64,000 nt of DNA from Bdellovibrionales bacterium (GTDB lineage: Bacteria > Bdellovibrionota > Bdellovibrionia > Bdellovibrionales > UBA1609), in contig JBFWVI010000009.1 in the NCBI GenBank assembly GCA_050246815.1, positions 1 through 64,000 on the forward strand, in the 5' to 3' direction. This document shows, one piece after another, positions 7,492 to 36,930 of this stretch; the stretch's first letter is position 1, and every line of letters begins with the position of its first letter. The translations under genes and the position numbers were made by a program. The notes beneath the pieces are model-generated. The model was not told the origin of the DNA. It did no database searches and saw only the letters and a list, made by a program, of their open reading frames with translations.

Positions 7492-7520
7492 TGCTCTTTG
7501 AAAACTAAATAGCTAGTCAA
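7492..7520 (+). promoter_or_regulatory. rrn leader boxA and 5' strand of the 16S processing stem
   Basis: TGCTCTTTGAAAA boxA-like motif. GCTCTTTGAAAACTAAATAGCTAGTCAA is complementary to TTGACTAGCTGTTTAGTTTTGAGAGAGC at ~9251-9278. A second boxA-like TGATCTTTGAAAA lies at ~9479. Confidence 0.8.
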
Positions 7521-7666
7521 CACAAGAAGGTTTTAGGTCTCGATCCTTTGAAGACCGCAAGGTCGGCTAAAGGAACGAGTCAATGAATTTTTAGTTTTGT
7601 CATGCAATACGTTGAAAAACGATTTGATGCTTAGACAAACTATTTTGTTTAAAAATTTAAAAGTTT

Positions 7667-9192
<1,526 letters not shown>

Positions 9193-9333
9193 TTTAGACT
9201 GTCGAACGGTGTTCGGCACGTCTCACTTCGTTGGTCATCCCTAAGACCTTTTGACTAGCTGTTTAGTTTTGAGAGAGCACAAAGCCACTTTGCGGTACGT
9301 TGTTTCTGGTGGCGGTGTAGATAGAAGACCTAG

Positions 9334-9410
<77 letters not shown>

Positions 9411-9642
9411 TCTTTTCAAGCAAGAGTTCGCGGAAGCGAAAGTTTGCTTGAGAATATGAGAGGCGAAAGCTTTCTCTGTGATCTTTGAAAATAGAATATA
9501 TTTGTTATCGATAGTTAAGTTTTTAACTATCAGCAAAAAAACCATAAGTTTTTTATTTTTTAGATTAGAGAAAAGATAAGAATTACTACCTAACAAAAAT
9601 TAGGTTCAAGTAATTCTTAGCAAGGTGAGTTCAAATACGAAT

Positions 9643-12623
<2,981 letters not shown>

Positions 12624-12670
12624 GTTTATTTGAACTCAATCCTTGCTAAGAATGACTTGTGCTTAATTTT

Positions 12671-12787
12671 TGCTGGTGTCTATAGCGGCGGGGCCACACC
12701 TGATCCCATCCCGAACTCAGAAGTTAAGTCCGCCAGCGGCGATGGTAGTGCAGCGGTAACGCTGTGGGAGAGTAGCACGATGCCAGC
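12671..12787 (+). rRNA. rrf: 5S ribosomal RNA
   Basis: CACCTGATCCCATCCCGAACTCAGAAGTTAAG, GATGGTAGTG and GGGAGAGTAG motifs. GCTGG/CCAGC terminal stem. Confidence 0.97.
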
Positions 12788-12797
12788 TTTTTTTTGT

Positions 12798-12835
12798 AAA
12801 GCCCGTCTTGGGAGACCAAGACGGGCTTTTTTTTT
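12798..12835 (+). terminator. Rho-independent terminator of the rRNA operon
   Basis: AAAGCCCGTCTTGG-GAGA-CCAAGACGGGCTTT hairpin followed by a T run. Confidence 0.92.
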
Positions 12836-12870
12836 GCCTTTTTGAGGTCATTGCCATGACTTTGCCCGCC

Positions 12871-12900
12871 TTGATTCGTTTTCGTGATTCCCCGTAGAAT
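12871..12900 (+). promoter_or_regulatory. Putative sigma-70 promoter of the exporter operon
   Basis: TTGATT-N18-TAGAAT about 40 nt before the TolC-family start. Confidence 0.45.
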
Positions 12901-12942
12901 TCCAAATGGTTTTTTAGTCCATTCGAAGGCAGTGGGAAACAT

Positions 12943-14271: not shown

Positions 14272-15097
14272 TTTTAACCTGGTGATGATGGCAGGGGCGC
14301 TCGCTGTGAGTTGCACTAAAAAAATCGATTCCACTGTCAAAACCGGAAAAGTTGAAAAGACCGACGTTATTCAGCGTACCACATTGAATGGCAGCCTACG
14401 TGGCAATCGGCAGAGCCAGATCCAGCCGGGGTACTCTGGTTATGTGGGCAAAGTTTTTGTGAAGGTCGGTGAAGACGTGAAGGCTGGACAGGCTTTGGTG
14501 AGCATCACGCAGACGATCAACCAAAACTTGAACGAAGTATTTCCGATACGTGCGCCGTTTGCGGGAAAGGTGACTCAAATTCTGAAGCAAGAGGGCGAAT
14601 ACATTTCGACGTCGAGCAGCAACAACGCTTTGTTGGTGCTGGATGATCTGACCTCGATGTGGATTGATGCCAATATCCCCGAGGTCGACATTGCCAAGGT
14701 ATCTTTAGGGCTTGAGGCGCAAATTCGTGCCAATGCTTTGCCCGGACGCACTTACAAGGGGGCGGTACAGACCCTGTCACTGTCTTCCAAGGCCGCCACG
14801 GATCGTTGGGACCGAGGCCGGGTGGAGTTTCCGGCTGAAATTCGAGTGCTGGATCCGGATCAAGATCTGAAGCCCGGCATGACGGTTGTGGTGGATGTGA
14901 TTTCGGCCAAAGTAGAAGGGGTACTGGCGGTGCGACATGAATTTGTGCATCGCGAGCGTGGGGATGTTTTTTTGATCGACAAAAATGATCGGCGTTATCC
15001 GGTTGAGCTGGGACTTTCAAATGAAGACATGGTGGAAATTCGCAGCGGTGTAAGTGAAGGTTTTGAAGTCAAAATGAAGGACTTCACAAAACTTTGA
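14246..15097 (+). CDS. MacA-like periplasmic adaptor (membrane fusion lipoprotein)
   Basis: Lipobox LAVSC, GYVGKVFVKVGEDVKAGQAL and IRAPFAGKV lipoyl halves with almost no helical hairpin between them, IPEVDI, LKPGMT, VELGLSN. Confidence 0.88.
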   Translation: MKLACSWTNFNLVMMAGALAVSCTKKIDSTVKTGKVEKTDVIQRTTLNGSLRGNRQSQIQPGYSGYVGKVFVKVGEDVKAGQALVSITQTINQNLNEVFPIRAPFAGKVTQILKQEGEYISTSSSNNALLVLDDLTSMWIDANIPEVDIAKVSLGLEAQIRANALPGRTYKGAVQTLSLSSKAATDRWDRGRVEFPAEIRVLDPDQDLKPGMTVVVDVISAKVEGVLAVRHEFVHRERGDVFLIDKNDRRYPVELGLSNEDMVEIRSGVSEGFEVKMKDFTKL

Positions 15098-17187
15098 TGG
15101 AGCTGCTGCTTGAAACCCGCAATTTGGGCTTTTCTTATAAGACAGGGCCGCCTGTTTTAAAGGGTATTTCGTTTGGAATTCGGCATGGCGAATTTGTGGC
15201 AATCACAGGTCCATCGGGCTCGGGCAAGTCGACTTTGTTTTATTTGTTGGGTGCGCTGACTTCTAAATTCAAAGGCGATATTTTTTTTGAAGGCATTTCT
15301 TACCGCACCATGAGTGCCGAGAAAGCCGCCGTGTTTCGCAATCAAAATATCGGCTTTGTATTTCAGCAGTTTTACCTGCTGCCGCGGGCGAATGTTTTGG
15401 ACAACATATTGTTACCAGCAAATTATCCCTTTGAAACTTCGCGCCCCACACTGGTGGACCAAGAACGAGCTAAAAATTTAGCTCATGAGTTGGGAATAGA
15501 GCATTTACTAGAGCGCGGACCACAACAGCTTTCGGGCGGGCAGCAACAACGAGTGGCGATTGCGCGAGCCCTGCTGCGAGACCCAGATTTGATTTTGGCT
15601 GATGAACCCACGGGAAATTTGGACAGTCACTCGAGTGAGGCGGTTTTTGGCTTGCTGCGCGAGATGAATCGCAAAGGAAAAACCGTGGTTTTGATTACTC
15701 ACAGCCAAGAACTAGCCAATCAGTGCGAGCGAATCATTCGCTTTAAAGATGGTGAAATCGAAGAGGATGTGAAAAATGGATCTAAATCGGCAGAGGGTTC
15801 TGTTCAAGAGTCAAAGGGGGCGCTTGAAGGACTGAATCTTTCGGACATCGCCAAATTTCGTATGCGGGAACCTTTGGCCCCCGGGTCGCGTTGGATGCAG
15901 TTTTTGGCCACATGGTCTTTGGTTTCTTATTGGCGATCGCTTCGGCCTGCCATAGAAAATATCCGGCGCAGTAAGGCCAAATCTTTTTTGACGATGCTGG
16001 GTGTGGTGCTGGGGATCGCGGCGGTTTTGAGTACGATGAGTCTGGGCGATTTTACCAAACGGCGGGTGCTGGCCGGCTATGAGTCAATGGGTGTTAATAA
16101 CTTGAATTTGAATGGTTATCCAAATTGGCGCCGCAGCTCGCGTGAATATGCCCCAGCTATTTTTCAGGCCTTTGATTGGCGGCGGGACTTGTTACCATTA
16201 CAAAAAATATTCACTGAAATTGAGGCCATGTCACCCGTGCTGCAAGTGTGGAGCCCTAAATTTAATTTCGGCGGTAACACTTTGTCAGACGACACGACCT
16301 TGCTGGGGGTGAATGAAGACTATTATATGATCACTAATCAGCAGCTTAAGGAGGGGCGACGCTTGATGTGGTTGGACGTCGAGAACGCCCATCCGGTGTG
16401 CGTGATTGGCTCAGGCGTGCAGAAGAAACTGTTCCGCCATGATGCTGCCCTGGATCGCATCGTCACCATTTTGCCGCAAAATCAAGAAAGTGAAATTCCG
16501 TGTCGCGTGGTGGGCGTATACAAACCTCAGCCGTCGCAAAATGCCAACAACCAGCCCGATGATATGATTTACGCACCTTACACCTACTTGCAGCGCGGTT
16601 TGACCAATCCTTGGGAGCGGGACATGCGCGGAGTTTCGATCAAAATCAGTTCCGGTTTTGACCCGGATAAAATGGGCAAACAATTTGAAGGGTATTTTAA
16701 GTCCCGCTATGGCAACACGGGCCAATTCAATTCCAATTCGAATGCGAAGGCCATCGCCGAGATGCGACTTTTTGTGGCCATTTTTTCATCGCTTTTGACT
16801 GCGGTGGCGCTGATCGCCTTGATTGTTGGCGGGGTTGGGATCAACAACATGATGTTGGTGAATTTATCAGAGCGATTAAAGGAGCTGGGCTTACGCAAGG
16901 CCTTGGGCGCGACACCACAGCAGATTCGCGCACTGCTGCTGACCGAGTCTTTGGTTTTGTGTCTGATCGGCGGTGTGGTGGGTTTGATTTTAGGATTTTG
17001 TGGATACCACGGCTTGATCTATGCCGCGACGAAGTTAATTCCAAACCTTGAGTTTCAGTGGGTTGTGCTATGGGGGGCTGTGCTGCTGTCGGGAGGCGCG
17101 GTCATCATCACGGGACTTTTAAGTGGCATGACTCCGGCGCTCAAAGCGGAACGTCTTCAAGTTATCGATGCGCTAAGACAGGAATAG
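15097..17187 (+). CDS. macB: MacB-family ABC transporter (fused ATPase and permease)
   Basis: [66 protein letters not shown] 15097 overlaps the upstream TGA. Confidence 0.92.
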
Positions 17188-17360: not shown

Positions 17361-18185
17361 GTGAAAAGAAGCAGTCTTCTTCAAAACCTGAGTGTCATCG
17401 TGTTTTTTGCCGGCATGATTTTTTTGTTTCAGAATTGCAATGTGTTAAGCCGGCCTCAGGCGGTCGACATGTCATCACTTTCGTTGCTTTTATTTCATGA
17501 CAACTTTGATGTGGCGACTTTACAATGTATGGATTGTCATGAAAGTGATCGAAAAGACGTCGCTCACTTTGCAGGGCAAGACTGTGCCGGTTGCCATGTG
17601 CCTGGCCCAGGTTGGGCTGTAAGCGCGGATGCCGCACATAACCCAGTACCAGTTCAATGCAAATCCTGCCATGCTGATGGAGCCACTTACGATCGATATC
17701 CTGTTGGTCATATGGCAATTGCAAGTGGCAGTGATTGTATTGACTGCCATAAGGCGTCCATCAGTGCGGGCTTTATGGATTGGAAGGGTGGTTTATTTGC
17801 ACACGATGCTACATTAATCGCAGGAAGAAACTGTTCAAGCTGCCATGCTGCAGATCGCCCCCCGATCGTTAATTCAACGAACATCAACCCCAGTATCAAT
17901 GATGCCCGTGTCGTGGATAAAACTCACTTTGCGGCCAAAGATTGCTTTTACTGCCACAATGCACCACCGACAGGAAACTCGTGGCGAGGTGCCAGTGCCA
18001 ATCAGTATGAACACACCGATGCATCAGGAATCAAACTCAATTTCTGCCTCTCTTGCCACATGAGAAGTGAGCATGTGGGCGTACACGGCTCGGTCAACTC
18101 GGACTTAGACACAGACGGAAAGTGCCAGCAATGTCACCAGAAACGAAGAAGCTGGGACAAATCGCCGCGCAATCCAAACTTGTGA
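17361..18185 (+). CDS. Octaheme c-type cytochrome, probable lipoprotein
   Basis: Eight CxxCH motifs (CMDCH, CAGCH, CKSCH, CIDCH, CSSCH, CFYCH, CLSCH, CQQCH). Hydrophobic signal ending FLFQNC. Confidence 0.88.
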   Translation: MKRSSLLQNLSVIVFFAGMIFLFQNCNVLSRPQAVDMSSLSLLLFHDNFDVATLQCMDCHESDRKDVAHFAGQDCAGCHVPGPGWAVSADAAHNPVPVQCKSCHADGATYDRYPVGHMAIASGSDCIDCHKASISAGFMDWKGGLFAHDATLIAGRNCSSCHAADRPPIVNSTNINPSINDARVVDKTHFAAKDCFYCHNAPPTGNSWRGASANQYEHTDASGIKLNFCLSCHMRSEHVGVHGSVNSDLDTDGKCQQCHQKRRSWDKSPRNPNL

Positions 18186-18187
18186 TT

Positions 18188-18778
18188 TTACTCTTTCAAA
18201 AGACGCGACATTTCTTGAATCGACGCAGGGCTTTGCCAATCTCTAAAACCACTAATCTTGCGGTAAAACTTCAAGCCTTTTTTTAAAATATAGCTTTCAG
18301 GCAGCGCTGAAGTTCCATAACTATTAGCGGTCTGTCCGAATGGGTCCAGCAATGTAATGAAATTCGAACTTGGTTTGATTTTTAAGTTTTTAAAAAAATC
18401 GAGCACCACGGACGAATTCTTGTCTTGCGAGATCGCGAGGATAAGAATTTCTTTTTCAAAGCTTCTTGAAAATTGAAGAAGAGAGGGCAGTTCGTCCAAA
18501 CAGGGTTTGCACCAGGTAGCCCAAAAGTTAACGATCACAATCTTATCTGTATGGTCTTGAATGGCAAATGGGCTTCCGTTCAAGTCAAGAAGCGAGAAGT
18601 GCGGCGCTTGTTGAAAGGGCGTCTGTAGAGTCGCAATATCAAGGTCCGAGGGATTGATTTCTGGATTCACAACATAGCGATCGACAAGTTTGTAGGTGCC
18701 GAAGGCGATGGCCACTACCGCGAGCAAAATCAGCGTTGTGGTTAAAGTCCGAGATCGAATGTGAACTGGTTGTGACAT
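18188..18778 (-). CDS. Membrane-anchored TlpA/ResA-family thiol-disulfide oxidoreductase
   Basis: N-terminal TM helix, APHFSLLDLNG, VNFWATWCKPC-x2-ELP and YGTSALPESY motifs. Confidence 0.92.
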   Translation of the reverse strand: MSQPVHIRSRTLTTTLILLAVVAIAFGTYKLVDRYVVNPEINPSDLDIATLQTPFQQAPHFSLLDLNGSPFAIQDHTDKIVIVNFWATWCKPCLDELPSLLQFSRSFEKEILILAISQDKNSSVVLDFFKNLKIKPSSNFITLLDPFGQTANSYGTSALPESYILKKGLKFYRKISGFRDWQSPASIQEMSRLLKE

Positions 18779-21222
18779 TTATTACATTCCTGCACGCCTA
18801 AAATTGGTGCGTGATTGAAGGTGGAGTTATCGACGTTGTTGCGATGGCAGTCTGTGCAGCTTGAGTAAGTGCCCTGGTAGACTCCATTGTTGTGGCACGA
18901 GAAACAATCCAAAGCTCGATGACTCCCGCGAAGCGGGAAGGCTGTCATGGAGTGGCGAAATTTTGAATGCTCCCAAAATGTTTGTCGGTGGCATTCGCTG
19001 CAATTGGGTAAGGAGCCATTGTGGACGTCGTCTTTTTGGTGGCAGACAGAGCAGCTTTCGCTGAGGCCCGAAAGTTTACGATCTTCTCGGTGGCACTCCA
19101 CGCAAGACAGCGTAAAGTGGCTCGCATGCAAAGTGAAATTGCGGTGAAAGTCCTTTACGATGGACCAACCTTTGTCGATGTGGCAGCTTTGGCAGCGATT
19201 GCCGAATTGCCCCTTATGGGTATCATCTCTTTTGTGGCAGTCGACGCAATCGGTTGAGAGTGGCCGATAGAGAGTTAATCTGTAGGCCTTCTGGTCGGGG
19301 CCAAATTGCACGCGCTTAGTTTCGTGGGGTTTATGGCAATCGCTGCATTTTGTCTTGACGTGTTTACCCGATAGCGCAAACCGTGTGCCCTTGTTGTGAT
19401 TGAAGTTGGTCGGCGACCACTTTTTTTCGTTATGACAATTTTGGCAGCTGATTCCTAATTGGCCAGCATGAAAATCAGAGTGACAAGTGGTGCAGGATTT
19501 TTTTTCCAGATCTGGGAAAAGAAAGCGGTGCCAAACTACTTCTTTTTGTCCGTAAGTCGAGCGGTTCAATGGCTTGTGACAATCGGCGCATTTAAGATCT
19601 TTGTGCCGCCCTTTAAGGGAAAATGCGGTTCGCTCATGGTCAAAGGATTTGAGATCAGAAAAGCGAGTGGTGGTATGGCATTCGGTGCAATTTTTTGCCG
19701 AAAATGCGGTGTGGAATTGATCCAAGTGAGGGTTGCGATGACAATCGAGACAAAATCCGGATTCAAAGCTTGGAAACTTAAAGACTTGCTTGCCGTTTTG
19801 ATTGTGGCACGAGGAGCATTTAAGATTTTGATGCTGGCCGCTGAGCTGGAATCGGGTTTGATTGTGATCGAAAGTTCCTTTTTTGTCATTGGGTTGCAGA
19901 TGCCAGCCCTCTGTAATATGGCAAGTGCTGCACTTTTTATTTGTAAAAGCCTTTGATGGAGAGCCCAAGTGAGGGTTTTGGTGGCAGGCGTTGCAGCTGG
20001 CGGAGGTTAGGTTGTGCCATAAATATCGGCCTGGCTTGTTGGCCCTATGCAGTGGCATCAAGAGTCCAGCTTTCTTTTTTTCCGGTAGATGGCAGTCCGC
20101 GCAAGACAGTGCGCTGTGTTTGCCATCGATTTCAAAGCGAGTGTTTGTTGAGTGGTTGAAGTCGTGAGTTTTCTTCCAATCGGATTCGGAATGACAGGAT
20201 AAGCAGTTGTTTGGATTTTTTATGCGTGGAGATTTGTAGGCGCCAAACAAATGCTGATCTTTATGACAAGTGAGGCAGGCTTGTGAGAGGCCTTTGTAGT
20301 TGAGTTGGGCCGCTTTGGGCCGGCCGGCGTTTTGTTTATGACAGTCTGTGCAGCGAAGCTGGGCGTGTTTGCCGCGAAGCGGATAGCCGGTGTTTTGGTG
20401 TGGGAAGCTTGTTGTCTTCCAGCTAGTTTGATTGTGGCATGTGGTGCAATTGCCGTTTTGATATTTAGCCGAAAGATTTTGTCGGTGAGGCGATTCATGA
20501 CAGCTAAGGCACTTTGAGCTTGAAAGCTGTTTCCAATGATAGCGCGCAGGTGACTTGGGGGTGGTCGGCTTCTGAGGGGAGTGACAGTCTTGGCACTTTA
20601 ACTGAGCGTGCTTTTCTTCAAGCTGAAATCGCGTATCCCGATTGTGATCAAATTTGGTTACTGTTTTCCAGGCCTGACTGTTGTGGCATGCATCACAGTC
20701 CTTTCGGGCCCACTTATCCGTGAACTGATGAATGTCGTCTTTGCGGTGGCAAGAGATGCAGCTTGAGATCTGCCCAATGTAGCGGACCCCGTCGGGTCGA
20801 ATAGGCTTTTGTGAGCGCTTTTGTTTGTGGCAGTCCGTGCACTTGAGTTGAGCGTGTTTGCCCGTCAGCGAAAGGCCTGTGATGTCATGGTTGAACTTGG
20901 CTTCGTTCAAAATTGTTGTATCATGTTGGCGACCTTGGTGGTCGGAATGGCAGTCCTGGCACTTTTTATCTGTGCGTCCGTGCAGTCCGCGTTTTTCATT
21001 TACGAACGGCAGGATCTCCTTATGGCATTCAAGGCATTTTTGGCTGGGCAGTCCTTTGCCCGCATCGTGGCATTTCATGCAGTCCGTGGCCTCTAAGTCT
21101 TTGTGCCCTTCGATAAGGGGGCCTGGTGCAAAGAGTTTATTGAGCAGGGCTTCCCGACTGGCCTCTTGGGCTTGCAGGACAACAGGTATCAAAACCAGTA
21201 GGGTATAGAGCCAACGCTTCAT
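18742..21222 (-). CDS. 30-heme c-type cytochrome built from ten triheme modules
   Basis: 30 CxxCH motifs counted in 826 aa. Cleavable signal peptide (...VVLQA). Repeating F-[DN]-H-x-T-x-F-x-L-x-G-x-H...CxxCH pattern. Confidence 0.92.
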   Translation of the reverse strand: MKRWLYTLLVLIPVVLQAQEASREALLNKLFAPGPLIEGHKDLEATDCMKCHDAGKGLPSQKCLECHKEILPFVNEKRGLHGRTDKKCQDCHSDHQGRQHDTTILNEAKFNHDITGLSLTGKHAQLKCTDCHKQKRSQKPIRPDGVRYIGQISSCISCHRKDDIHQFTDKWARKDCDACHNSQAWKTVTKFDHNRDTRFQLEEKHAQLKCQDCHSPQKPTTPKSPARYHWKQLSSSKCLSCHESPHRQNLSAKYQNGNCTTCHNQTSWKTTSFPHQNTGYPLRGKHAQLRCTDCHKQNAGRPKAAQLNYKGLSQACLTCHKDQHLFGAYKSPRIKNPNNCLSCHSESDWKKTHDFNHSTNTRFEIDGKHSALSCADCHLPEKKKAGLLMPLHRANKPGRYLWHNLTSASCNACHQNPHLGSPSKAFTNKKCSTCHITEGWHLQPNDKKGTFDHNQTRFQLSGQHQNLKCSSCHNQNGKQVFKFPSFESGFCLDCHRNPHLDQFHTAFSAKNCTECHTTTRFSDLKSFDHERTAFSLKGRHKDLKCADCHKPLNRSTYGQKEVVWHRFLFPDLEKKSCTTCHSDFHAGQLGISCQNCHNEKKWSPTNFNHNKGTRFALSGKHVKTKCSDCHKPHETKRVQFGPDQKAYRLTLYRPLSTDCVDCHKRDDTHKGQFGNRCQSCHIDKGWSIVKDFHRNFTLHASHFTLSCVECHREDRKLSGLSESCSVCHQKDDVHNGSLPNCSECHRQTFWEHSKFRHSMTAFPLRGSHRALDCFSCHNNGVYQGTYSSCTDCHRNNVDNSTFNHAPILGVQECNKCHNQFTFDLGL

Positions 21223-22550
21223 AAGCGTCCCCGCGGTGGCGTGCCGTCTCGGAGCGGAGAAATTTTTTGATTGCCGAACAAAAGTGTGACTTGGAAGAGC
21301 GCAGAATAGATTTCAACTTTTTCGTCTCGTTGGTACTGTAGACTGGCGGCGCCAAAAAAACGCCGTGAGACTTGGAAGGCATAAGTGGCTTCACCGATGA
21401 TCGGGTGCAGGTGTTGACCCGTGGTCTCAGTTTCAGCGCCAAGGTCAATTGAGAACTCATACTCATCTTTGTCGGTGAAATAGCCAAAGCTGTATCCGCC
21501 ATAAGTGCCAGTTTTCGTAAATTCCTTTTTTTGTGCAAGTCGGTAAGACATATCGATGTTTTTGGAGTGTATTCTTGGCGTTTTACATTCGCCAGTGACA
21601 TTTAAGCGCTCCAAGTCATCCGCGCTTCGTTTTCCGTAGCGGGTTTGGAGGGTCCAGCGAAGCGTTGGACTAGAGAGCAGGGTGCCACGAAGAGACGCTT
21701 CTTTGTATGGGCTGGGCTCTAATTGTTCGCGTAGGTCCTGGGCACGGCGATATTCGACAACGTCGTAGGCGCTCAGACCTAATTGAGTGAAAAAGCGGGA
21801 TGTCCATTTTTGGTCATAGAGAGCCAACCCATTTTGAACGTAAGTGCGAGGCACAAAATCCAAGTACACCATACTTGAGACTTGGCTCCCCACGGCCCAT
21901 TGATAGGCGCTTCTTTGGTAGAGGTACTGGCGATCAGTTTGGCCATCGTATTGTTGTGTGACGTGGGCCACATGAAGTTCTTTGCGTGTAGTCCATGACG
22001 GTGTTTTGGGAGTCAGCGAAGCTATCGCGCCGAAGGTGGTGGCCTTTTCGCGAAACTGGAGATAGCTTTTGTCATATTGTTTTGGGTTAAGGCCGGCAAA
22101 GGCTTCGGCGCTAAAACTTTGCGACAGCCGCCATCCAATGCTCGCGCCATCGTTGAATGTAGCGCCAGCATCTGGTATCGCATAGCGGCCGACCTCAAAA
22201 ATAAGACCTTCTGAATTGGGATTTTTTCGTAAGGAGAGTTGGCGGACTTGGAATGAGTTGTGATCTGTCAGTTCCTGTCTTTCGCGGTCTAGCTTATTGA
22301 AAAAATCATGTTTGTCCCTGAGATCCGAGGTGAAGACCCACTCGCGCGTGAGCAGGTCCCCCGCACGATAGTAAAACCGGGCCGACGAAGTGGCAAAATC
22401 ATTGTTGTCGGTGCTGAAGGGCTCGGGCTCATGTTTTTCATGGGAGAAAAAGGCGCCAAAGCTAAGGCGCCCGTGTTCATCAAAGGCAAAAGTGGGGACC
22501 GCAAAGACGGCCCCAAACAACATCGGGATAAGTAAGCTTTTACTTTTCAT
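21219..22550 (-). CDS. Putative outer-membrane beta-barrel (porin-like) protein
   Basis: Signal peptide, no internal TM helices, many amphipathic aromatic-rich strands (GRLSFGAFFS, FEVGRY, GASIGW, YGGYSFGYF, ASLQYQ, LFQVTLLF). Overlaps the 30-heme gene start by 4 nt. The barrel call is an inference and there is no terminal Phe. Confidence 0.65.
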   Translation of the reverse strand: MKSKSLLIPMLFGAVFAVPTFAFDEHGRLSFGAFFSHEKHEPEPFSTDNNDFATSSARFYYRAGDLLTREWVFTSDLRDKHDFFNKLDRERQELTDHNSFQVRQLSLRKNPNSEGLIFEVGRYAIPDAGATFNDGASIGWRLSQSFSAEAFAGLNPKQYDKSYLQFREKATTFGAIASLTPKTPSWTTRKELHVAHVTQQYDGQTDRQYLYQRSAYQWAVGSQVSSMVYLDFVPRTYVQNGLALYDQKWTSRFFTQLGLSAYDVVEYRRAQDLREQLEPSPYKEASLRGTLLSSPTLRWTLQTRYGKRSADDLERLNVTGECKTPRIHSKNIDMSYRLAQKKEFTKTGTYGGYSFGYFTDKDEYEFSIDLGAETETTGQHLHPIIGEATYAFQVSRRFFGAASLQYQRDEKVEIYSALFQVTLLFGNQKISPLRDGTPPRGRL

Positions 22551-22579
22551 TTCAATCAGGCTCTGTCTAGAATGCTAGC

Positions 22580-24322
22580 GTGGGATGGCTTAAACGTCAG
22601 CTTTTGTTCAAAATCTTTTCCTCGGTCAAATTCGCCGTCCCGTTGCTGTTGGTCATCGCGGCGGTGATCGCGGCCGGGACCTTGGTTGAGAGTCGATACA
22701 ACGCCAGCTATGCACAAATGCGAGTCTATGAAACCTGGTGGTTTCGCGCTCTGATGGGCTGTTTGGGGCTTTCTGTTTTCACGGCGGCATTGTCACGCTG
22801 GCCATGGCAAAAGCGCCACGTGGGTTTTTTAGTCACGCATCTAGGTATTTTGATGATGCTGGCGGGAGGCGTGGTCACAAAACTTTGGGGCATTGATGGT
22901 CAGTTGCAGATACCCGAAGGAAAGTCGGGGCAGCAGGTGTTTATTTCGGAGCGTGTCTTTGAGTACTCAGGACCAAGAGATTTTAAGAAAATTCTCATCC
23001 CCACAAGCGCGAGTGCGTGGCGTGAAGGGTGGTTGAGCCCGGTCAGGCAGGAGCCGGATTCACCTGCGCAAGTCGTGGGATTTGAGCCTTTTGTACGACC
23101 TCGTGCTCAAAGCGGCCCCCGGGGAGCAGGGGGGAAGTTCATTGCGTTTCGCCTGCAAAGCCAGTTTTTTGATCAGGAGGAATGGCTGGACTCCGTTGAG
23201 CGACCACAAATTCAAATGGGGCCGGCGCTGATTCGCTTTGGTATGCAAGAAAAGATGCTCGTGCCAAAGCAGGAGCCGCTGCATAAAAAAGACTTTGTGG
23301 GACTGTTTATTCGAGACGCCGATGGCGAAGCCGTTGCCAAACGTCTAGACATTGGTCTTGGGCAGCGCGAAGCCCGCATCGGGGCTGTGAAAATTCAGGT
23401 GAAGCAAGTTCTGAAGCGTGCCACTGTGGCGGACAACAAGATCGCGGAGGGCGATAGCGGCCCGCTTAACCCAGCACTGGAGATTGAGATCTTAGCGAAT
23501 GGAAAAACATATCGCGATGTGATTTTCTCGCGCTTCCCAAGCTTTTCCCTTCTGAAAGAAAATCCAACTCGCTTTCGCTTCGAATACGTGGCTGGAGGTT
23601 CGGGAGAATCGCTACAAAATGAGGATGCCGCGCGCAATTTAATTGAATTTATTCCTTCGCCTGAGCAATCGGACAAAGCCATTTTGAGGTTGTCCAAGCA
23701 AGGCAAAGTCATTTTAGAGAAAGAAGTAAAAGTCGGAGAGCCAACCGATACTCCATGGATGGGTATGAAAGTGACTTTAGTTTCCTTAACTGCGCCTGAA
23801 ACCAATACAGCGCAGGCGGAGAAAATTGAGACTATTCGCCCCACGCCTAAACAGCCCAATTTGCCGCCGAGTGCAATTTTAGTTCGTGTGGCAGGCGAGC
23901 AACCTCCTTTTTGGCTGGTGGAGGGCGATATCAAGGATGTTCAGGTTCGAGGAGAGCGTTACCAGTTCTATTATGGGCTTAATTCCATTCGCTTGCCGTT
24001 TGCGCTTGAGCTCTTAAAATTTACAAAAGTTGACTATCCGGGAACTGAGACTGCGATGTCGTTTGCGAGTGACGTTCGCGTCGTAACAGACCAAAGTCGA
24101 CATACAATTTCGATGAATGAACCATTGAAACGAGATGGTTACACTCTTTATCAGAGCAGTTATGATCTACAACCGGGACGCCCTGCGCTTTCGATCTTTT
24201 CTGTGAATCGGGACCCTGGGCGTTGGATCAAATACATGGGCGGATTGGTTTTAGCATTTGGGATTGTCACGCTGACCATAACGAGAAGCCGGATGGCGCG
24301 GCGGAGCGGGAAACAAGTATGA
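22580..24322 (+). CDS. resB: Cytochrome c biogenesis protein ResB/CcsB (system II)
   Basis: SSVKFAV...GTLVES, VYETWWF, GFLVTHLG (heme His), large periplasmic domain, ISMNEPL-x3-GYTLYQSS and VNRDPG followed by a TM helix. Confidence 0.88.
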   Translation: MGWLKRQLLFKIFSSVKFAVPLLLVIAAVIAAGTLVESRYNASYAQMRVYETWWFRALMGCLGLSVFTAALSRWPWQKRHVGFLVTHLGILMMLAGGVVTKLWGIDGQLQIPEGKSGQQVFISERVFEYSGPRDFKKILIPTSASAWREGWLSPVRQEPDSPAQVVGFEPFVRPRAQSGPRGAGGKFIAFRLQSQFFDQEEWLDSVERPQIQMGPALIRFGMQEKMLVPKQEPLHKKDFVGLFIRDADGEAVAKRLDIGLGQREARIGAVKIQVKQVLKRATVADNKIAEGDSGPLNPALEIEILANGKTYRDVIFSRFPSFSLLKENPTRFRFEYVAGGSGESLQNEDAARNLIEFIPSPEQSDKAILRLSKQGKVILEKEVKVGEPTDTPWMGMKVTLVSLTAPETNTAQAEKIETIRPTPKQPNLPPSAILVRVAGEQPPFWLVEGDIKDVQVRGERYQFYYGLNSIRLPFALELLKFTKVDYPGTETAMSFASDVRVVTDQSRHTISMNEPLKRDGYTLYQSSYDLQPGRPALSIFSVNRDPGRWIKYMGGLVLAFGIVTLTITRSRMARRSGKQV

Positions 24323-25962
24323 AAAGAAACTGGCTCGTCTTGATATGTATGCTGTGCATTCCCTCATCGGTCATGGCCCTGACAGATCCGCATGAGGCAT
24401 TTTTAAGTCATGGCCGACAGATTCGAAGCCAGCTTTTTGAAACTTTGCCTGTACATGATCGTGGACGTATTAAGCCGGCACATACTTTTATGCGCGAGGC
24501 GATTTTATTTGTAACGGGAGGTTATAACTTCAGCGGGCTGGATGCCGTACAAACTTATCTGAGTCTTATCGGCTTTTCTGAAATTGAGCGGCTCAAAGTA
24601 TTGAACGTCAGGCATGTGCCTGTGCGCAAAGCCTTGGGTTTGAACGCGTCAGCGAGATTTTTTTCAACGGCGGATATCGAAAGCAGTAAGTTATTGGAAT
24701 TTGCTCAGCCGTTGTTGGAAAAGGAAGAGAAAAATTCGCGAGCGCTTGAGCCCCACGAAAAAAACCTGCTTGAAATCTACAACCAGTATTGGCTGTTAAA
24801 AAATATTCATTCAGGCCAACACTTGCTGCGGGCCGTGGATGCAAATGAGGTGGGACATGCGGCTGAATTCCACCAAGAGCCGACCGGCGAAGCGGTGCAA
24901 AAAGTTAGAGATTGGTTACAGGCGACTATCGATGGGAATTGGAACTTAGTTTCGGAGTTGCGTTCACTTACATTCGAAGCTGTACGCCAACAACATTGGC
25001 CCGAGCTTTTTGCCAAGCAATTTGAGCACCTAGAAAGAGAAGTTCAGTACAACAAAATTCGCCCATTTTTAATCGCAGGCCTGCTTTTTTTAATTCTTGG
25101 CGCGAGCTTGGCGTTTAAGGACCATGTGCCGTTTCTATCGAAGGTTAACTTTGGTTATTTACTTGTGCTGCCTTTTTTTCCGCTGGCCTATGGCCTTTAT
25201 CTAAGAGTGATCATCACCGGGTTTGCGCCTGTGACCAATATGTACGGAACCATGATCTGGGTTTCGTTTGGTATAGGGCTGTTCAGTCTAGTTTTATGGT
25301 ATCTGTATCAAAAGCACCGTTTTGTCGGCGGCCTTTGGATCGCCGCCGCGGCAACACTTTTTTTAACTGAGAGTATTCCGCTGGTTCTAAGCCCGGATCT
25401 TGACCCAATTGTCGCTGTTTTACGGTCGAATCTGTGGCTGACCATCCATGTGCTCACGATTGTCATTTCTTATGCGGCCTTTGCTATTGCGATGATCCTT
25501 GGCAATATCGTTTTGATTCGTACTTTGCGTCGGCCTGTCTATGATGATCCTGCCATTCGCGATGCCGCCAAATCTTGCTACAGAATGATCCAGCTTGGCG
25601 TTTTTTTACTTTCCGGAGGCATTATTTTAGGAGGTGTCTGGGCGGATTACTCTTGGGGGCGTTTTTGGGGGTGGGATCCGAAAGAAACATGGGCCTTAAT
25701 CGCAGATCTTGGCTTTTTGGCCATTCTACATGCGAAATACGTCGGATGGCTGGGGGCCTATGGTCTGTTGGCGGCCTCGACTGTTGCATTTTTGCTTGTG
25801 ATCATGGCCTGGTACGGCGTCAATTTTATACTTGCGGCGGGCCTGCACTCTTATGGCTTTTCGAGCGGCGGAGCGACAATGGTATTGGTTTTCGTGATCA
25901 TGCAATTGGGGTTGTTGGCCGCCTCTCTTATGCGTTATTCGCGGAGTAAAGTGGTAAGGTGA
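24319..25962 (+). CDS. ccsA: Cytochrome c synthase CcsA/ResC (system II) with N-terminal periplasmic domain
   Basis: GRIKP, APVTNMY, VLRSNLWLTIHV, WWD motif WADYSWGRFWGWDPKETWAL and GLHSY. Start reassigned to ATG 24319 (ATGA overlap with the resB stop). Confidence 0.93.
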   Translation: MKRNWLVLICMLCIPSSVMALTDPHEAFLSHGRQIRSQLFETLPVHDRGRIKPAHTFMREAILFVTGGYNFSGLDAVQTYLSLIGFSEIERLKVLNVRHVPVRKALGLNASARFFSTADIESSKLLEFAQPLLEKEEKNSRALEPHEKNLLEIYNQYWLLKNIHSGQHLLRAVDANEVGHAAEFHQEPTGEAVQKVRDWLQATIDGNWNLVSELRSLTFEAVRQQHWPELFAKQFEHLEREVQYNKIRPFLIAGLLFLILGASLAFKDHVPFLSKVNFGYLLVLPFFPLAYGLYLRVIITGFAPVTNMYGTMIWVSFGIGLFSLVLWYLYQKHRFVGGLWIAAAATLFLTESIPLVLSPDLDPIVAVLRSNLWLTIHVLTIVISYAAFAIAMILGNIVLIRTLRRPVYDDPAIRDAAKSCYRMIQLGVFLLSGGIILGGVWADYSWGRFWGWDPKETWALIADLGFLAILHAKYVGWLGAYGLLAASTVAFLLVIMAWYGVNFILAAGLHSYGFSSGGATMVLVFVIMQLGLLAASLMRYSRSKVVR

Positions 25963-25966
25963 ACAT

Positions 25967-27310
25967 ATGAAATGGCTGGTGATGTTGTTAGACCATCTTT
26001 GGATCTGGGGTTTACTTATTTTTGGTGGACTGGCCTATTACGGTGTCGCAAAAAAAAATCGGCAAGAAAATCAGGCAAAAAAAATTTTGCAAAAAGCTGT
26101 GGCGACCGGGCTTGATGAGCCGTTGAGTCTGCACCCAGAGGTCGACCCGGCGAAATGCGCGGGTTGTGGCGCCTGCACGAAGGTTTGCCCCGAAGGTGAC
26201 ATTCTTAAAATGATCAACAGCAAGGCTGTTTTGGTTTCACCAACGAAGTGTGTGGGCCACGGCGAATGCGAGCGCGCCTGCCCCTTTGGCGCCATTGACT
26301 TGGTATTTGGCACTAAAAAACGTGGTGTCGATATTCCACGCCTTTCTAAGAACTATGAAACAAATGTACCTGGACTGTATATTGCGGGTGAGTTGGGCGG
26401 CATGGGGCTGATCCGCAATGCGATCAAACAAGGCCATCAGGCTGCAGATCATGCCTTGAGCAATTTAAATCCCAGCGTGAAATCCGACACGGATGTGCTT
26501 GTCGTTGGGGCTGGTCCCGCCGGATTGGCGGTATGCCTGACGGCGATCGTGCATAAAAAGCGTTATCTATGTATTGAGCAGAATACGGCCGGTGGTACGG
26601 TTTATAATTTTCCTCGGCAAAAAGTTGTGATGACCCATCCAGCGGATCTGCCGGGTGTAGGGAAAATGAAGTTTCCGCGTAATGTGGTTTCAAAAGAGGA
26701 GCTGTTGCACTATTGGAATCAAGTGCGGCAAAAGGTCGGAATTAAGATTAGAGAAAATGAAAAATTTGAGGGACTTGAAAAGGTCGGAGATCATTTCAAA
26801 GTCAAGACCTCAAAGGCGGAGTACATGGCCCAAAAGGTTGTCTTGGCTATGGGTGTGCGAGGCTCGCCTAGGCGCTTGGGCTTGCCAAATGAAGACACGA
26901 CAGGTGTGGCTTATAACTTGATTGATCCGGCACAATATACGAACAAAAAAATCGCGGTGGTGGGCGGCGGTAATGCCGGTGTGGAAGCTGCGCAGATGCT
27001 GGCTAACCCTAAATATAAAAATCAGGTGACTTTGTTGGTGCGTGGTCCTGCATTTGATCGTTGCAATGAGGACAATAAGCGAATTATTGAGGATATGGCC
27101 CAAAAAAAAATGGTCCAAATTTGGTATGAAGCCCAAGTGAAGGAAATTAAAAAAGACCAGCTGAATATTGAGCGTGCGGGGCAATTGCTGGACATCGAGA
27201 ATGATCAGCTTTTTGTATTCGCAGGCGCCGAGATGCCGTTTAAGTTTTTGATGAGCTTAGGAGTCGAAATTAATAAAGCTTTTGGTCAGAAATTGAAGTC
27301 GGGTGGATAA
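25967..27310 (+). CDS. Membrane-anchored 2x[4Fe-4S] ferredoxin fused to a thioredoxin-reductase-like FAD/NAD(P)H oxidoreductase
   Basis: N-terminal TM helix, CAGCGACTKVCP and CVGHGECERACP, ETNVPGLYIAGELGG, VVGAGPAG, VVLAMG and VVGGGNAGVEAA. No TrxR active-site CxxC. Confidence 0.88.
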   Translation: MKWLVMLLDHLWIWGLLIFGGLAYYGVAKKNRQENQAKKILQKAVATGLDEPLSLHPEVDPAKCAGCGACTKVCPEGDILKMINSKAVLVSPTKCVGHGECERACPFGAIDLVFGTKKRGVDIPRLSKNYETNVPGLYIAGELGGMGLIRNAIKQGHQAADHALSNLNPSVKSDTDVLVVGAGPAGLAVCLTAIVHKKRYLCIEQNTAGGTVYNFPRQKVVMTHPADLPGVGKMKFPRNVVSKEELLHYWNQVRQKVGIKIRENEKFEGLEKVGDHFKVKTSKAEYMAQKVVLAMGVRGSPRRLGLPNEDTTGVAYNLIDPAQYTNKKIAVVGGGNAGVEAAQMLANPKYKNQVTLLVRGPAFDRCNEDNKRIIEDMAQKKMVQIWYEAQVKEIKKDQLNIERAGQLLDIENDQLFVFAGAEMPFKFLMSLGVEINKAFGQKLKSGG

Positions 27311-28180
27311 ATGATCGCGTGGTTCGGCCGACAATTGATTTTGCTTTGGTTTTTTATCGCGCTGATCCTGTGTTGGGAGTACTTAGCCTTGAACTACAGT
27401 CCTGGCTTAAGTCTATTGTTGTTTGCAAAAATAAAGTGGCCCTATTGGGCAGAAGTCGATTTTTCGACAAAACCTGGAAAGCCGATCAGCTATGCATTGG
27501 GTTGGATCGGTTTTGGGTTTATGGTCTCTACAAACTTTTATATTTTGCGTAAGCGTTTGGGCATTATGCAAAAGTGGGGCAACCCATCGGTCTGGCTGGA
27601 TTATCATATTTTTTGTGGTTTGATCGGCCCCACTCTTATTATTTTTCATACTGACTTTAAAGTTCGTGGCTTGGTCGCAATTAGTTTTTGGTCCATGATG
27701 ATCGTTGCGGGCAGCGGTATTTTAGGACGATATCTGTATATGAAGGTCTTGATTGGCGCAGCCGAATTGAGGGGGCAGATTCAAGAGTGGGATAAAAAAA
27801 TTTCGACCTTAATCACATCCAGCAAAAAAAATGTGACCGAAGCTGAGATCGCGGGCTTAAAAGGGATGGCACTGCAATACGCGGGGGCCACGCCGCTGAC
27901 GGAAGAGGTCGTGGGGTTGAGTGGATTATTTAAAATCGTTTGGTTTTCTGTTGTTGGCGATATCAAAATATTTTTTTCGCATGCGGGGATTGGACGCCAT
28001 CTTCATCCGTTGGCACCTATTGTACTTTTAAATTACGCCACCACGGTCCGGCGCGAACTCACGCTTGAACCCTTTCGCCGTCTTTTGGGCTACTGGCATG
28101 CGTTTCATGTGCCCTTTACGTTCGCGATGTACATCACGGCTATCATCCACATCGTGGTCGTCTCGCTGCTGCGGGTCTAA
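27311..28180 (+). CDS. Polytopic inner-membrane protein, putative di-heme b (ferric-reductase-TM-like)
   Basis: About five hydrophobic segments and two H-x13-H pairs (YHIFCGLIGPTLIIFH; FHVPFTFAMYITAIIH). Starts immediately after the flavoprotein stop. Confidence 0.72.
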   Translation: MIAWFGRQLILLWFFIALILCWEYLALNYSPGLSLLLFAKIKWPYWAEVDFSTKPGKPISYALGWIGFGFMVSTNFYILRKRLGIMQKWGNPSVWLDYHIFCGLIGPTLIIFHTDFKVRGLVAISFWSMMIVAGSGILGRYLYMKVLIGAAELRGQIQEWDKKISTLITSSKKNVTEAEIAGLKGMALQYAGATPLTEEVVGLSGLFKIVWFSVVGDIKIFFSHAGIGRHLHPLAPIVLLNYATTVRRELTLEPFRRLLGYWHAFHVPFTFAMYITAIIHIVVVSLLRV

Positions 28181-28188
28181 TGTCGCTT

Positions 28189-29490
28189 TTACTGCGGAAC
28201 GACCCGCCAAATGGATCCTGAGTCGGTGGCCACGTACAAATTGCCGTCGGGACCCTGGACCAAAGAGCGAATGCGCTGCGCGGGTAAACCCACTTGAGTA
28301 ACGCTGGCCACGCTATTGTTGGCATTGAGGCGCAGGCGATCTAGTCGTGTGGCAGCCATGACCCCTACCAAAAGACTGCCTTCCCACGCTTTCCACTGTG
28401 TGCCGTATAAAAACACGCTGGGGCCCATACCTTGGGATTGGCCGTTGTTGGTGTACACCGGCATCATGGCGTTCACGAACTTGCCAGTGTCGGTCATTGG
28501 AGTCAGGGCGCCGTTGGTTTTGTTGGAAACATAACCACAGTAGTTGTCGTTGCAGGTGACTCCGGCTTCGGGTCTTGGGTCCCAGCCTGAGTTGCCGCCA
28601 GCCGCGAGGGGTGTGACTTCATCGGTGTGGCCGGGGCCGTGCTCAGAGGAAAATGGTTGATTGGAACCAGGGCGAAAGGCGATCCCTTGAACATTTCGAT
28701 GACCAAAAGTAAAAATGCGCGGATCGGCCCCGGCGGGAGCGTTGTTGCCAGGAGCGGCGGTGCCGTTACCGGTCACGCGTAAAACTTTGCCCCCCAAGCG
28801 GGTCAGATCTTGTGGCAGCGGACCGTTGTGATTGTCGCCCGTGGTGACATACAAATAGCCGTCAGGTCCGAAGCGCAAACGTCCGCCGCTGTGAGCGCCC
28901 GCCCCACCCCAGCTGTTGCCTGCGTTTTTATAAGCAATGTCGGTGATGATGTCCGTGCGGTTGGCGACCATTGTGTAGCCGGCATCTACCGTCAGGCGAA
29001 TCACGCGATTGGTGCGGGGGTTGGTGGACAGATTTGAGGCCATATAAACATAGATCGTACGGTTTGTGGCGAAGTTGGGGTCCACCGCCACGCCGAGCAT
29101 GCCGCTTTGGCCCTCACAGAACATATCAGCAGCCACAAGGGCCGAGCCCGCAGAGCCAAACAAGCGCGTCACTGAACCATCCGCACGGCGAACTGAAAGG
29201 CCGTTGCAACGTTCGGTGAACAGCATGGCATTGTCGGGAGTGAAGGCCAAATCCCAAGGATTGCTCAAGCCTGTCATGAAATCCGTGCGCTGCAAAGTGG
29301 GCTCGACATTGCTTGAGGGCTCAAGAGGTGTGCCGCTGCCAGGGGGGGGAGGGGTGCCACCACCGGGACCGCCACTGCTGCCTTGATTGTTAGCTTGTTG
29401 CGAGTCAAAGCCACCGGTGCAGTTTTGAGCAATGACAATGGAGCTAGCCAAAATGGCCAGTAACCCCAGCATTTTCACCCGACGACGCAT
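28189..29490 (-). CDS. PQQ-dependent glucose/sorbosone dehydrogenase family (GSDH) lipoprotein
   Basis: GLSNPWDLAFTPD, GMLGVAVDPNF, HSGGRLRFGPDGYLYVTTGD, GKVLR, GHRNVQG, EHGP-x2-DE and RIRSLVQGPDGNLYVATD. Start at ATG 29490 (AGGGGG RBS), signal ending IAQNC. Confidence 0.92.
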   Translation of the reverse strand: MRRRVKMLGLLAILASSIVIAQNCTGGFDSQQANNQGSSGGPGGGTPPPPGSGTPLEPSSNVEPTLQRTDFMTGLSNPWDLAFTPDNAMLFTERCNGLSVRRADGSVTRLFGSAGSALVAADMFCEGQSGMLGVAVDPNFATNRTIYVYMASNLSTNPRTNRVIRLTVDAGYTMVANRTDIITDIAYKNAGNSWGGAGAHSGGRLRFGPDGYLYVTTGDNHNGPLPQDLTRLGGKVLRVTGNGTAAPGNNAPAGADPRIFTFGHRNVQGIAFRPGSNQPFSSEHGPGHTDEVTPLAAGGNSGWDPRPEAGVTCNDNYCGYVSNKTNGALTPMTDTGKFVNAMMPVYTNNGQSQGMGPSVFLYGTQWKAWEGSLLVGVMAATRLDRLRLNANNSVASVTQVGLPAQRIRSLVQGPDGNLYVATDSGSIWRVVPQ

Positions 29491-29638
29491 AATATTCCCC
29501 CTGATTGCGGTTTGATCTAAACCTGGTCTCATTGGGATCTATTGTGAGATTGTTGGGGCGGGTTTGTCCAGAGCAAGATGGGCATAGGCAGAATACGGTT
29601 TAGTTTAACGCGATTGTGTGTAGGTTTGCCGACAATTT

Positions 29639-36929: not shown

Positions 36930-36930
36930 G

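Follow-up and report, generated by a model that had tools for sequence, protein, structure and literature searches.

Eight adjacent open reading frames (ORFs), termed A to H below, occupy positions 17361-28180 of a 64,000-nucleotide stretch of contig JBFWVI010000009.1 (hereafter ‘the window’; assembly GCA_050246815.1, from a Bdellovibrionales bacterium of the GTDB lineage UBA1609) and, on balance, probably encode a PCC3-type trans-envelope multiheme conduit that would draw its electrons from NAD(P)H in the cytoplasm, and not from quinol. PCC3 is a predicted class of porin-cytochrome system (He, Barco, Emerson and Roden 2017, PMC5566968; Gallionellaceae survey, PMC10734462), and the cluster fits the published description of that class in both its motifs and its layout. 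A first-pass annotation of the window had already read these genes as an electron conduit from the cytoplasm to the cell surface; all eight of the contiguous genes that it described were recovered as ORFs, with 8 and 30 CxxCH motifs in the two cytochromes. The genes are arranged in three transcription units, as follows:

17361..18185, plus strand: gene A, an octaheme c-type cytochrome and predicted lipoprotein, which stands alone on its strand
18188..18778, minus strand: gene B, a membrane-anchored ResA/TlpA-like thiol-disulfide oxidoreductase (CKPC)
18742..21222, minus strand: gene C, an exported 30-heme cytochrome c of 826 amino acids, predicted to act as a periplasm-spanning wire
21219..22550, minus strand: gene D, a 443-amino-acid outer-membrane beta-barrel, modeled with 22 strands and no plug, and a predicted cytochrome sheath
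22580..24322, plus strand: gene E, ResB (CcsB), a cluster-linked paralog
24319..25962, plus strand: gene F, CcsA, a cluster-linked paralog
25967..27310, plus strand: gene G, a membrane-anchored, predicted cytoplasmic Fe-S flavoprotein
27311..28180, plus strand: gene H, an inner-membrane protein of 289 amino acids with five transmembrane (TM) helices and four invariant histidines, predicted to bind two b hemes

If this reading is true, an NAD(P)H-fed conduit would represent a different entry principle for extracellular electron transfer; to our knowledge, every characterised Gram-negative route of that kind starts at the quinone pool (through CymA, ImcH or CbcL).

The PCC3 and PCC4 systems' inner-membrane component has been described as a protein of approximately 300 amino acids with five TM helices, an SGXXG motif on TM4 and WX3HX13H motifs on TM3 and TM5 (PMC5566968), and H displays all of these defining features. 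It contains WX3HX13H at residues 95 and 262 and SGILG at residue 135; five TM helices are seen in its AlphaFold2 model (pLDDT 93.4), with the motifs located on helices 92-113, 121-146 and 235-287, the histidine pairs on TM3 and TM5, and a helical insert between TM4 and TM5 that, by the positive-inside rule, would be cytoplasmic. The two H-x13-H pairs that had been picked out in the first reading are conserved, in that all four histidines (H99, H113, H266 and H280) are invariant in an alignment of 59 sequences, as are W262, G136 and G139, and the four are spaced as in two-heme b cytochromes. The family is a large one (in an exhaustive HMMER search, 1859 cluster representatives matched at E<=1e-3, while 960 did so at E<=1e-10), and 14 of its members are fused to poly-ferredoxin domains. 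Sub-threshold Pfam matches among the 59 members, to DUF4405 in 44, to Ferric_reduct (PF01794) in 20 and to Ni_hydr_CYTB in seven (three families that we take to share one Pfam clan), point to a two-heme cytochrome b kind of protein. In the literature searched, the combination of HX13H with multiheme cytochromes was encountered only in He et al.

The gene adjoining H encodes G, in which an N-terminal TM segment is joined to a two-cluster ferredoxin domain (Fer4 families) and an FAD/NAD(P)H domain of the thioredoxin-reductase type (Pyr_redox_3, 136 bits; Rossmann motifs GAGPAG and GGGNAG, starting at residues 181 and 333). The description of G as a protein with two [4Fe-4S] clusters stands as far as the two Fe-S motifs are concerned, but those motifs read CxxCxxCxxxCP and CxxHxxCxxxCP, so that the second is not all-cysteine. 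Across 33 aligned sequences seven of the Fe-S ligands are invariant or nearly so, and the histidine of the second motif (H98) is invariant in all 33. Histidine-ligated Fe-S clusters are typically electron exit points, as in hydrogenases and complex I. Against the YpdA model G scores 154.6 bits (E 3e-45; cut-off 339.9), which makes it a relative of YpdA and not an equivalog, and because no CxxC or other cysteine pair is present outside of the Fe-S motifs it is not a disulfide reductase. The N-terminal TM segment and a basic stretch are kept in every G homolog that was extracted.

Several lines of evidence indicate that G is probably the cytoplasmic partner of H. The cross-phylum counts given here and below refer to the 80 best H-homolog loci, taken from one-genome-per-species contigs and including none from Sideroxydans or Leptothrix; 61 of these loci contain a homolog of G no more than 10 kb from H, as do 47 of the 51 where at least 3 kb are available to either side. 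In some organisms the two proteins are found in a single chain: P0238 (805 amino acids) has G as its N-terminal and H as its C-terminal part (hhalign 99.9%, E 2e-32), P0309 (789 amino acids) is another G-then-H fusion (hhalign 99.4%), and an independent structural search of the Atlas also returned a G-H fusion (TM-score 0.74). The order of the two parts in these fusions fits the predicted cytoplasmic N-terminus of H. Links from G to cytochromes are likewise found, since multiheme-cytochrome Pfam domains are present in 45 of 120 long G homologs among the matches listed (by manual count), and in P0225 a TM segment and a cytochrome follow upon G. The fusion proteins thus lend support to the entry module proposed at the outset, in which NAD(P)H, FAD, Fe-S clusters and heme b would follow one another. 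Within the literature searched, no paper was found on an Fe-S flavoprotein partner of the PCC3 membrane protein, and none that treats PCC3, porin and flavoprotein together.

The predicted G-H pair resembles NOX, FRE and SpNOX enzymes, in which a cytoplasmic NAD(P)H-flavin module passes electrons to two b hemes held by histidine pairs 13 residues apart and thus across the membrane, and the natural single-chain fusions mimic the NOX layout. It differs from those enzymes in that G is of the thioredoxin-reductase type with a ferredoxin domain, rather than of the FNR type; in that H has five TM helices and a predicted cytoplasmic helical insert, with the PF01794 domain matched only below threshold (in the 20 of 59 members mentioned above); and in that the predicted acceptor is a cytochrome c wire, rather than O2 or an Fe(III) chelate. 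A different reductase stands next to a membrane protein of this kind on a plasmid of Methylophaga pinxianii (NZ_CP095734.1, locus 10073-13427), where genes for a 2Fe-2S protein (612 amino acids), an H-like protein (252 amino acids) and a cytochrome c stand in a row between copper/heavy-metal genes and a complete ccm operon. H-like proteins thus seem to serve as general adaptors that connect cytoplasmic reductases to periplasmic cytochromes.

The other end of the proposed conduit is formed by the products of genes C, D and A. In PCC3 clusters the barrel gene adjoins that of a periplasmic many-heme cytochrome, and the same is true of D and C. The periplasmic cytochrome of PCC3 has been reported to carry a median of 21 hemes (range 21-27) at 26-27 amino acids per heme, and it has been argued that such wires span the periplasm (PMC5566968, PMC10734462). 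C, with its Sec signal and 30 CxxCH motifs, is somewhat larger, with 26.9 amino acids per heme when counted after the signal peptide; this shared value of about 27 makes the length of the chain plausible for the same task. It belongs with the Cytochrome_C7 family (E 3e-38, as against 1e-12 for A), displays no sequence relative in the PDB at E 0.01, and scores 88.4 bits against the DmsE/MtrA family model TIGR03508 (cut-off 192.2). A (9) and C (41) both contain further histidines beyond those of their CxxCH motifs, and C contains only four methionines, so that enough histidines are available for bis-His ligation throughout. In a scan of all ORFs of the assembly, these two proteins were the only cytochromes with more than five CxxCH motifs.

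The barrel-like protein whose gene overlaps the start of C was described as such in the first-pass annotation, and in its AlphaFold2 model (pLDDT 87.1, pTM 0.78) D is indeed a barrel of 22 antiparallel strands, rather than a soluble fold, preceded by a signal peptide and free of a plug domain. The structures matched with Foldseek are FimD/PapC ushers and Occ and MOMP porins (E 1e-11 to 1e-7), a list of ushers and porins in which MtrB does not figure. No Pfam or NCBIfam match was found for D (for Pfam even at E 10), and its profile retrieved nothing from PDB sequences at E 1 beyond chance rows. As modeled, a plugless barrel of 22 strands would leak unless it were filled, and the lack of a plug, together with the four-nucleotide coupling of D to the 30-heme gene, would fit a sheath of the MtrB kind. 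The example of a PCC3 system from Leptothrix cholodnii given by He et al. (2017, PMC5566968) likewise comprises a porin described with 22 TM segments, alongside cytochromes with 24 and 22 hemes.

The logic of a barrel-sheathed multiheme cytochrome combined with a lipoprotein cytochrome is that of MtrCAB of Shewanella and of MtoAB/PioAB. The MtrCAB structure is available as 6R2Q; MtrB has 26 strands, as compared to the 22 modeled for D. C further differs in having 30 hemes and not 10, and by its TIGR03508 score it falls outside of the MtrA/DmsE decaheme family; in addition, the predicted entry of electrons is not by way of a quinol dehydrogenase of the CymA type.

The second cytochrome of PCC3 is predicted to be extracellular, and its counterpart here would be A. 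The assignment of A as an octaheme lipoprotein was borne out with respect to its 8 CxxCH motifs, and less directly with respect to its lipidation: the signal peptide ends in LFQNC, which is not a canonical lipobox, but when the signal-like N-termini encoded in this genome were scanned crudely, ‘QN’ was the joint commonest pair before cysteine (18 of 324), and in five related loci the second cytochrome displays ‘x-Q-N-C’ as well. That sequence therefore seems to be a lipobox typical of the lineage. Across related loci the second cytochrome carries from 8 to 41 hemes (the 8-heme form is found in one other genome) and a lipobox cysteine is present in 17 of 18, mostly followed by a similar stretch, C-x(2-4)-P-x-V-x-D/E. 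A may therefore be regarded as the smallest form of a conserved lipoprotein cytochrome component.

The co-conservation of these genes was assessed at two levels. Within the phylum, a profile of the barrel found matches in only two of 41 close relatives (this genome counted) and in 26 of 401 genomes across Bdellovibrionota, of which 22 were strong (E <1e-120, in about ten families) and four weak; the distribution of the barrel family within the phylum is thus patchy. Neighbors were counted in 21 loci around barrel homologs, each of up to 20 kb. A cytochrome with 21-33 hemes lies directly downstream of the barrel in all 21 (with 30 hemes in 12), a second cytochrome with at least eight hemes is found in 18, G and H in 17 each, and ResB together with CcsA in 11. 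The order and strand of the genes vary between loci, and their linkage is therefore not merely inherited synteny, so that the question of co-conservation raised with the first reading is answered in its favor. Among 59 homologs of D, the organism names given are all Bdellovibrionales-like or ‘Deltaproteobacteria’. The barrel of Oligoflexus is a clear homolog (hhalign 100%, E 3e-39, against the D profile), and in Maribellus the next gene in the locus encodes a 559-amino-acid protein ending in phenylalanine, with an hhalign probability of 85% (E 6e-6) to the barrel profile.

Related clusters had also been expected in other phyla, and they are found there in quantity. The 80 H loci span more than 10 phyla, and their hosts include Bdellovibrionota (among them Oligoflexus tunisiensis Shr3), Acidobacteriota, Ignavibacteria, Calditrichota, Bacteroidota (among them Maribellus luteus XSD2), Gemmatimonadales, Zixibacteria, Marinimicrobia, Krumholzibacteriia, Planctomycetota and Nitrospiria. 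A cytochrome with at least eight hemes lies near H in 69 of these loci, and in 49 of the 51 whose flanks measure 3 kb or more to either side; outside of Bdellovibrionota the usual order is H, G, a 20-heme cytochrome and a larger one, or else H, cytochromes and G. A version of the cassette is carried by the roughly 100-kb plasmid pEMTOL02 of Emticicia oligotrophica, a cultured member of the Bacteroidota (NC_018749.1, 8755-21339), in which a fused CcsA, H, G, two ‘cytochrome c3 family’ genes (635 and 1001 amino acids), a 538-amino-acid gene and a GW-domain gene follow in a row that includes a weakly barrel-like gene, and its presence on a plasmid argues for portability. To judge from these sequence comparisons, the system is not peculiar to Bdellovibrio, and its design, already predicted as PCC3, is widespread; because the cassette also occurs in aerobes and in phyla that are not predatory, a general link to predation is unlikely. 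In three of the related loci one cluster gene is in two pieces (G in L045, at 3682-4975, and the large cytochrome in L042, at 6585-9575, and in the Oligoflexus tunisiensis locus L061, at 14073-17125), which may reflect frameshifts, assembly errors or decay.

What is particular to the locus described here is its host lineage, its private System II paralog, its minimal 8-heme lipoprotein and a barrel family centered on Bdellovibrionota. PCC3 has been reported in Alpha-, Beta- and Gammaproteobacteria as a set of four genes (PMC5566968), and the cluster differs from that published outline in its host, in the presence of G next to H (and fused to it elsewhere), in the heme-attachment genes and in the small number of hemes of its second cytochrome. 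The text of the supplement to He et al. (2017) contains no mention of Bdellovibrio, FAD or pyridine nucleotide, while tables that may be present as images could still list such genes. The literature searched contained no gene-level description of the cluster in Bdellovibrionota: a lake survey reports FeGenie matches in Bdellovibrionia, with the genes not described in the portion consulted (10.1101/2022.03.26.485925), and the clusters presented in a preprint on peat are different ones with 8-13 hemes (10.64898/2026.05.27.727921, as far as consulted). For Bdellovibrionota, studied mostly as aerobic predators, the cluster would add a redox capability to some lineages.

The genes, their motifs, the modeled folds, the co-conservation and the fusions are direct observations, from which cofactor content, contacts between the proteins, the direction of flow, quinone independence, surface exposure and role in physiology are inferred. 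Taken as a path for electrons, the cluster would operate as follows. NAD(P)H would reduce the FAD of G, from which electrons would pass through the two Fe-S clusters of the same protein, the second with its invariant histidine ligand, to the two b hemes likely bound by H, and thereby cross the inner membrane. The 30-heme cytochrome C would then take them over the periplasm to the interior of D, the barrel modeled with 22 strands, and the lipoprotein A, at or beyond the outer membrane, would receive them and hand them to an external acceptor. Transfer in this direction would be downhill, whereas transfer inward to NAD(P)+ would be steeply uphill and against the membrane potential, so that outward flow is favored. 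Because protons would not follow the electrons out of the cell, operation of the module would draw down the membrane potential, as does that of NADPH oxidases, and the module would therefore more likely serve as a sink for reductant or as a surface reductase than in energy-conserving respiration.

That last consideration invites a variant in which the chain is the same, and runs outward, but works as a non-respiratory, NAD(P)H-driven surface reductase, for reductive acquisition of Fe or Mn, for the reduction of external oxidants or humics, or to let heterotrophs that are mostly aerobic shed surplus reductant. Beyond its NOX-like cost in membrane potential, this variant draws on the distribution of the cassette over many heterotrophic phyla and onto a plasmid, and on the presence of an aerobic isolate among its carriers (Oligoflexus tunisiensis is described as aerobic) and of heme-copper oxidases in the genome examined here, both of which would fit a reductant outlet. 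A complement of at least 38 hemes, on the other hand, represents a heavy cost in iron for a device of uptake or defense, and none of the clustered genes suggests a specific substrate. The surface-reductase variant is considered unlikely, while still retaining an appreciable share of the probability.

A number of observations weigh against a PCC3-type conduit fed from NAD(P)H. A Pfam search with H of this locus is negative even at E 10. Its model has no Foldseek match in the PDB at E<=1e-3, and a wide VIA-align comparison returned helical hairpins and designed bundles only (Z<=8.9), both results being uninformative; a search of PDB sequences with the H profile also gave nothing meaningful. Its predicted binding of heme b thus rests on the motifs, and H could still contain a quinone site. 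Some barrel loci lack G or H (with several of these misses at the ends of contigs), and the gene for A, the predicted lipoprotein, is a separate transcription unit on the opposite strand. The first-pass annotation had taken the cluster to be self-contained, with a full ResA/ResB/CcsA System II set; ResB, CcsA and a ResA-like protein are indeed present, but neither CcdA nor DsbD is encoded in the cluster, DsbD_TM matches being confined to contigs C6 and C12, so that the set is not complete. Aerobic carriers and the heme-copper oxidases encoded here mean that anaerobic respiration is not implied. Finally, PCC3 itself was called functionally unverified in 2025 (10.1101/2025.02.27.639646), and the flow proposed for it is inward, i.e. 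Fe(II) oxidation (PMC5566968).

That last proposal supplies the opposite view of the cluster, in which the barrel-cytochrome complex would oxidize an external donor (for instance Fe(II) or a mineral in reduced form), H would deliver electrons to the quinone pool, and G would be accessory or run in reverse. It follows the model put forward by He et al. for PCC3 and PCC4, in which the membrane protein is thought to talk to quinones (PMC5566968); PCC3 genes are, moreover, expressed in Sideroxydans CL21, where one inner-membrane component reportedly rises with iron oxidation (10.1101/2025.02.27.639646), and multiheme conduits can run both ways (PMC10734462). Set against this, G is a flavoprotein of the NAD(P)H type that is fused to H in some organisms, the reduction of NAD(P)+ from donors at the level of Fe(II), inward and against the membrane potential, would be strongly uphill by standard potentials, and the hosts considered here come from heterotrophic or predatory lineages. 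Inward uptake is therefore regarded as distinctly improbable for this cluster, more so than a surface reductase.

A more general reading also presents itself, for which the chances are judged to fall slightly short of even. G and H would then belong to a new and widespread prokaryotic ‘split NOX’ class, in which an Fe-S flavoprotein of the thioredoxin-reductase type, docked to a membrane protein with two hemes, would carry NAD(P)H electrons straight across the inner membrane, without quinones, into giant cytochrome c wires. PCC3-type conduits would accordingly be reductive outlets of ordinary heterotrophs, Bdellovibrio-like predators included, rather than iron-oxidation machines, with a private heme-attachment system added in this lineage. 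Were this to hold, many environmental PCC3-like clusters would have to be re-read in terms of reductant disposal instead of iron oxidation. The pairing of G with H is directly testable, given the existence of natural fusions and of cultured carriers (Oligoflexus tunisiensis Shr3, Maribellus luteus XSD2 and Emticicia oligotrophica DSM 17448).

The remaining three genes of the cluster concern the attachment of heme. E matches ResB (PF05140) at 86.1 bits, as compared to a cut-off of 24.6, and F matches Cytochrom_C_asm (PF01578) at 93.2 bits, as compared to 29.9; the WWD motif of F reads WGRFWGWD and lies at residue 447 (numbered from a start at 24316). B has an N-terminal TM anchor, a thioredoxin fold with a WCKPC sequence (CxxC at residue 90) and matches to AhpC-TSA (E 6e-16), Thioredoxin_8 and Redoxin; its nearest relatives are ResA, DsbE and TlpA, with a score against the ResA subfamily model (E 2e-19) that stays below cut-off. 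ResB and CcsA above their Pfam cut-offs, the WWD motif and a membrane-anchored CxxC thioredoxin are the marks of System II (ResA-ResB-ResC or CcsBA), from whose usual form this set differs in that it is a divergent additional copy, travels in company with the conduit and has no CcdA of its own. One start was revised: that of F is most likely ATG 24319 (giving 547 amino acids) instead of TTG 24223, and there the stop of E and the start of F share the sequence ATGA.

A second ResB/CcsA pair is indeed encoded on contig C54, its ResB 27-31% identical to E and its CcsA 38% identical to F, while F is 43-50% identical to cluster-linked CcsA proteins of other families. On C54 (approximately 1300-9550) these genes form one strand-run with a pentaheme cytochrome, a 1043-amino-acid protein and a 454-amino-acid protein, an arrangement that would correspond to an Alternative Complex III-like operon with maturation genes of its own. 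Both copies were found in four of the five other cluster-bearing genomes examined, and in a maximum-likelihood tree 13 cluster-linked copies are split from five housekeeping copies by a branch with 100/100 support; the copy of this genome's family groups with those of another family, which hints at transfer within the order. E, F and B constitute a second set for heme attachment, one that is likely devoted to the loading of 38 hemes, and cluster-linked ResB and CcsA would provide a clean case of dedicated maturation machinery that travels with very heme-rich substrates.

The same genes could be taken in another sense, in which G and H serve the periplasm only (for example, by reducing heme or apocytochrome thiols for System II), the large cytochromes are electron stores of the periplasm and the barrel is an ordinary porin. 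Here G and H do share one tight operon with ResB and CcsA, the cluster contains no CcdA, and on the Emticicia plasmid CcsA lies directly upstream of H and G. Against this, G and H stand beside the barrel and cytochromes without ResB/CcsA in approximately six of the 21 Bdellovibrionota loci, and a tblastn search found ResB/CcsA near H in none of 63 loci from other phyla. The barrel gene is coupled to that of the large cytochrome in every one of the 21 loci, G is devoid of a disulfide-active cysteine pair, and an empty, plugless pore of the modeled size would leak. A purely periplasmic role is accordingly held to be very improbable, the least so favored of the alternatives, and a trans-envelope conduit that starts from NAD(P)H is retained as the preferred account.

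The organization of the locus is compact. D, C and B constitute a minus-strand unit in which the stop of D and the start of C share ATGA (a four-nucleotide overlap) and C and B overlap by 37 nucleotides; E, F, G and H constitute a plus-strand unit with a four-nucleotide overlap between E and F, a gap of four nucleotides between F and G and no gap between G and H. The divergent starts of the barrel and ResB operons are separated by 29 bp (22551-22579), which implies that both promoters lie inside the coding sequence of the neighboring gene or that the starts are miscalled. A scan for promoters gave 11 sites, as compared to 10.9 expected by chance, and terminator-like sites numbered 21, as compared to 14.9 expected. 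An Rfam scan returned the ribosomal RNA (rRNA) operon and transfer RNAs (tRNAs) only, with nothing inside the cluster. The GC content of the cluster (48.5%) lies at the 8.6th percentile of the 3.4-Mb assembly (50.7%), and base composition gives no clear sign of a recent transfer. Among sequencing runs listed as containing this DNA, three DNA datasets were identified, all from a single study and labeled as landfill metagenome (two of them may be the source), and no RNA dataset.

The sequences that flank the cluster were compared to those of three congeners and two further family members, in which the best match to the upstream MacB was 42% identical and the downstream glucose/sorbosone dehydrogenase gene was mostly not found; these genomes are too divergent for gain or loss to be mapped. 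The MacB gene belongs to an operon directly upstream of A (12943-17187, plus strand) that encodes TolC-like, HlyD-like and MacB-type ABC efflux components; nothing ties it to the conduit, and the MacB-like matches that two other loci show close to H are probably due to chance. The dehydrogenase-like gene (28189-29532, minus strand; PF07995) is convergent with H and encodes a predicted lipoprotein with the lipobox IAQNC. Further upstream, a complete rRNA operon is located at 7266-12788 on the plus strand (16S at 7667-9184, 23S at 9642-12623 and 5S at 12672-12788), with one tRNA upstream and one in the spacer. Two tandem genes for prolyl oligopeptidases (S9) occupy 34812-39009 on the plus strand, and are followed at 39019-60348, on the same strand, by a single open frame of 7109 amino acids, which, with Calx-beta repeats in 15 stretches and FG-GAP repeats in 13, looks like a giant adhesin-like surface protein.

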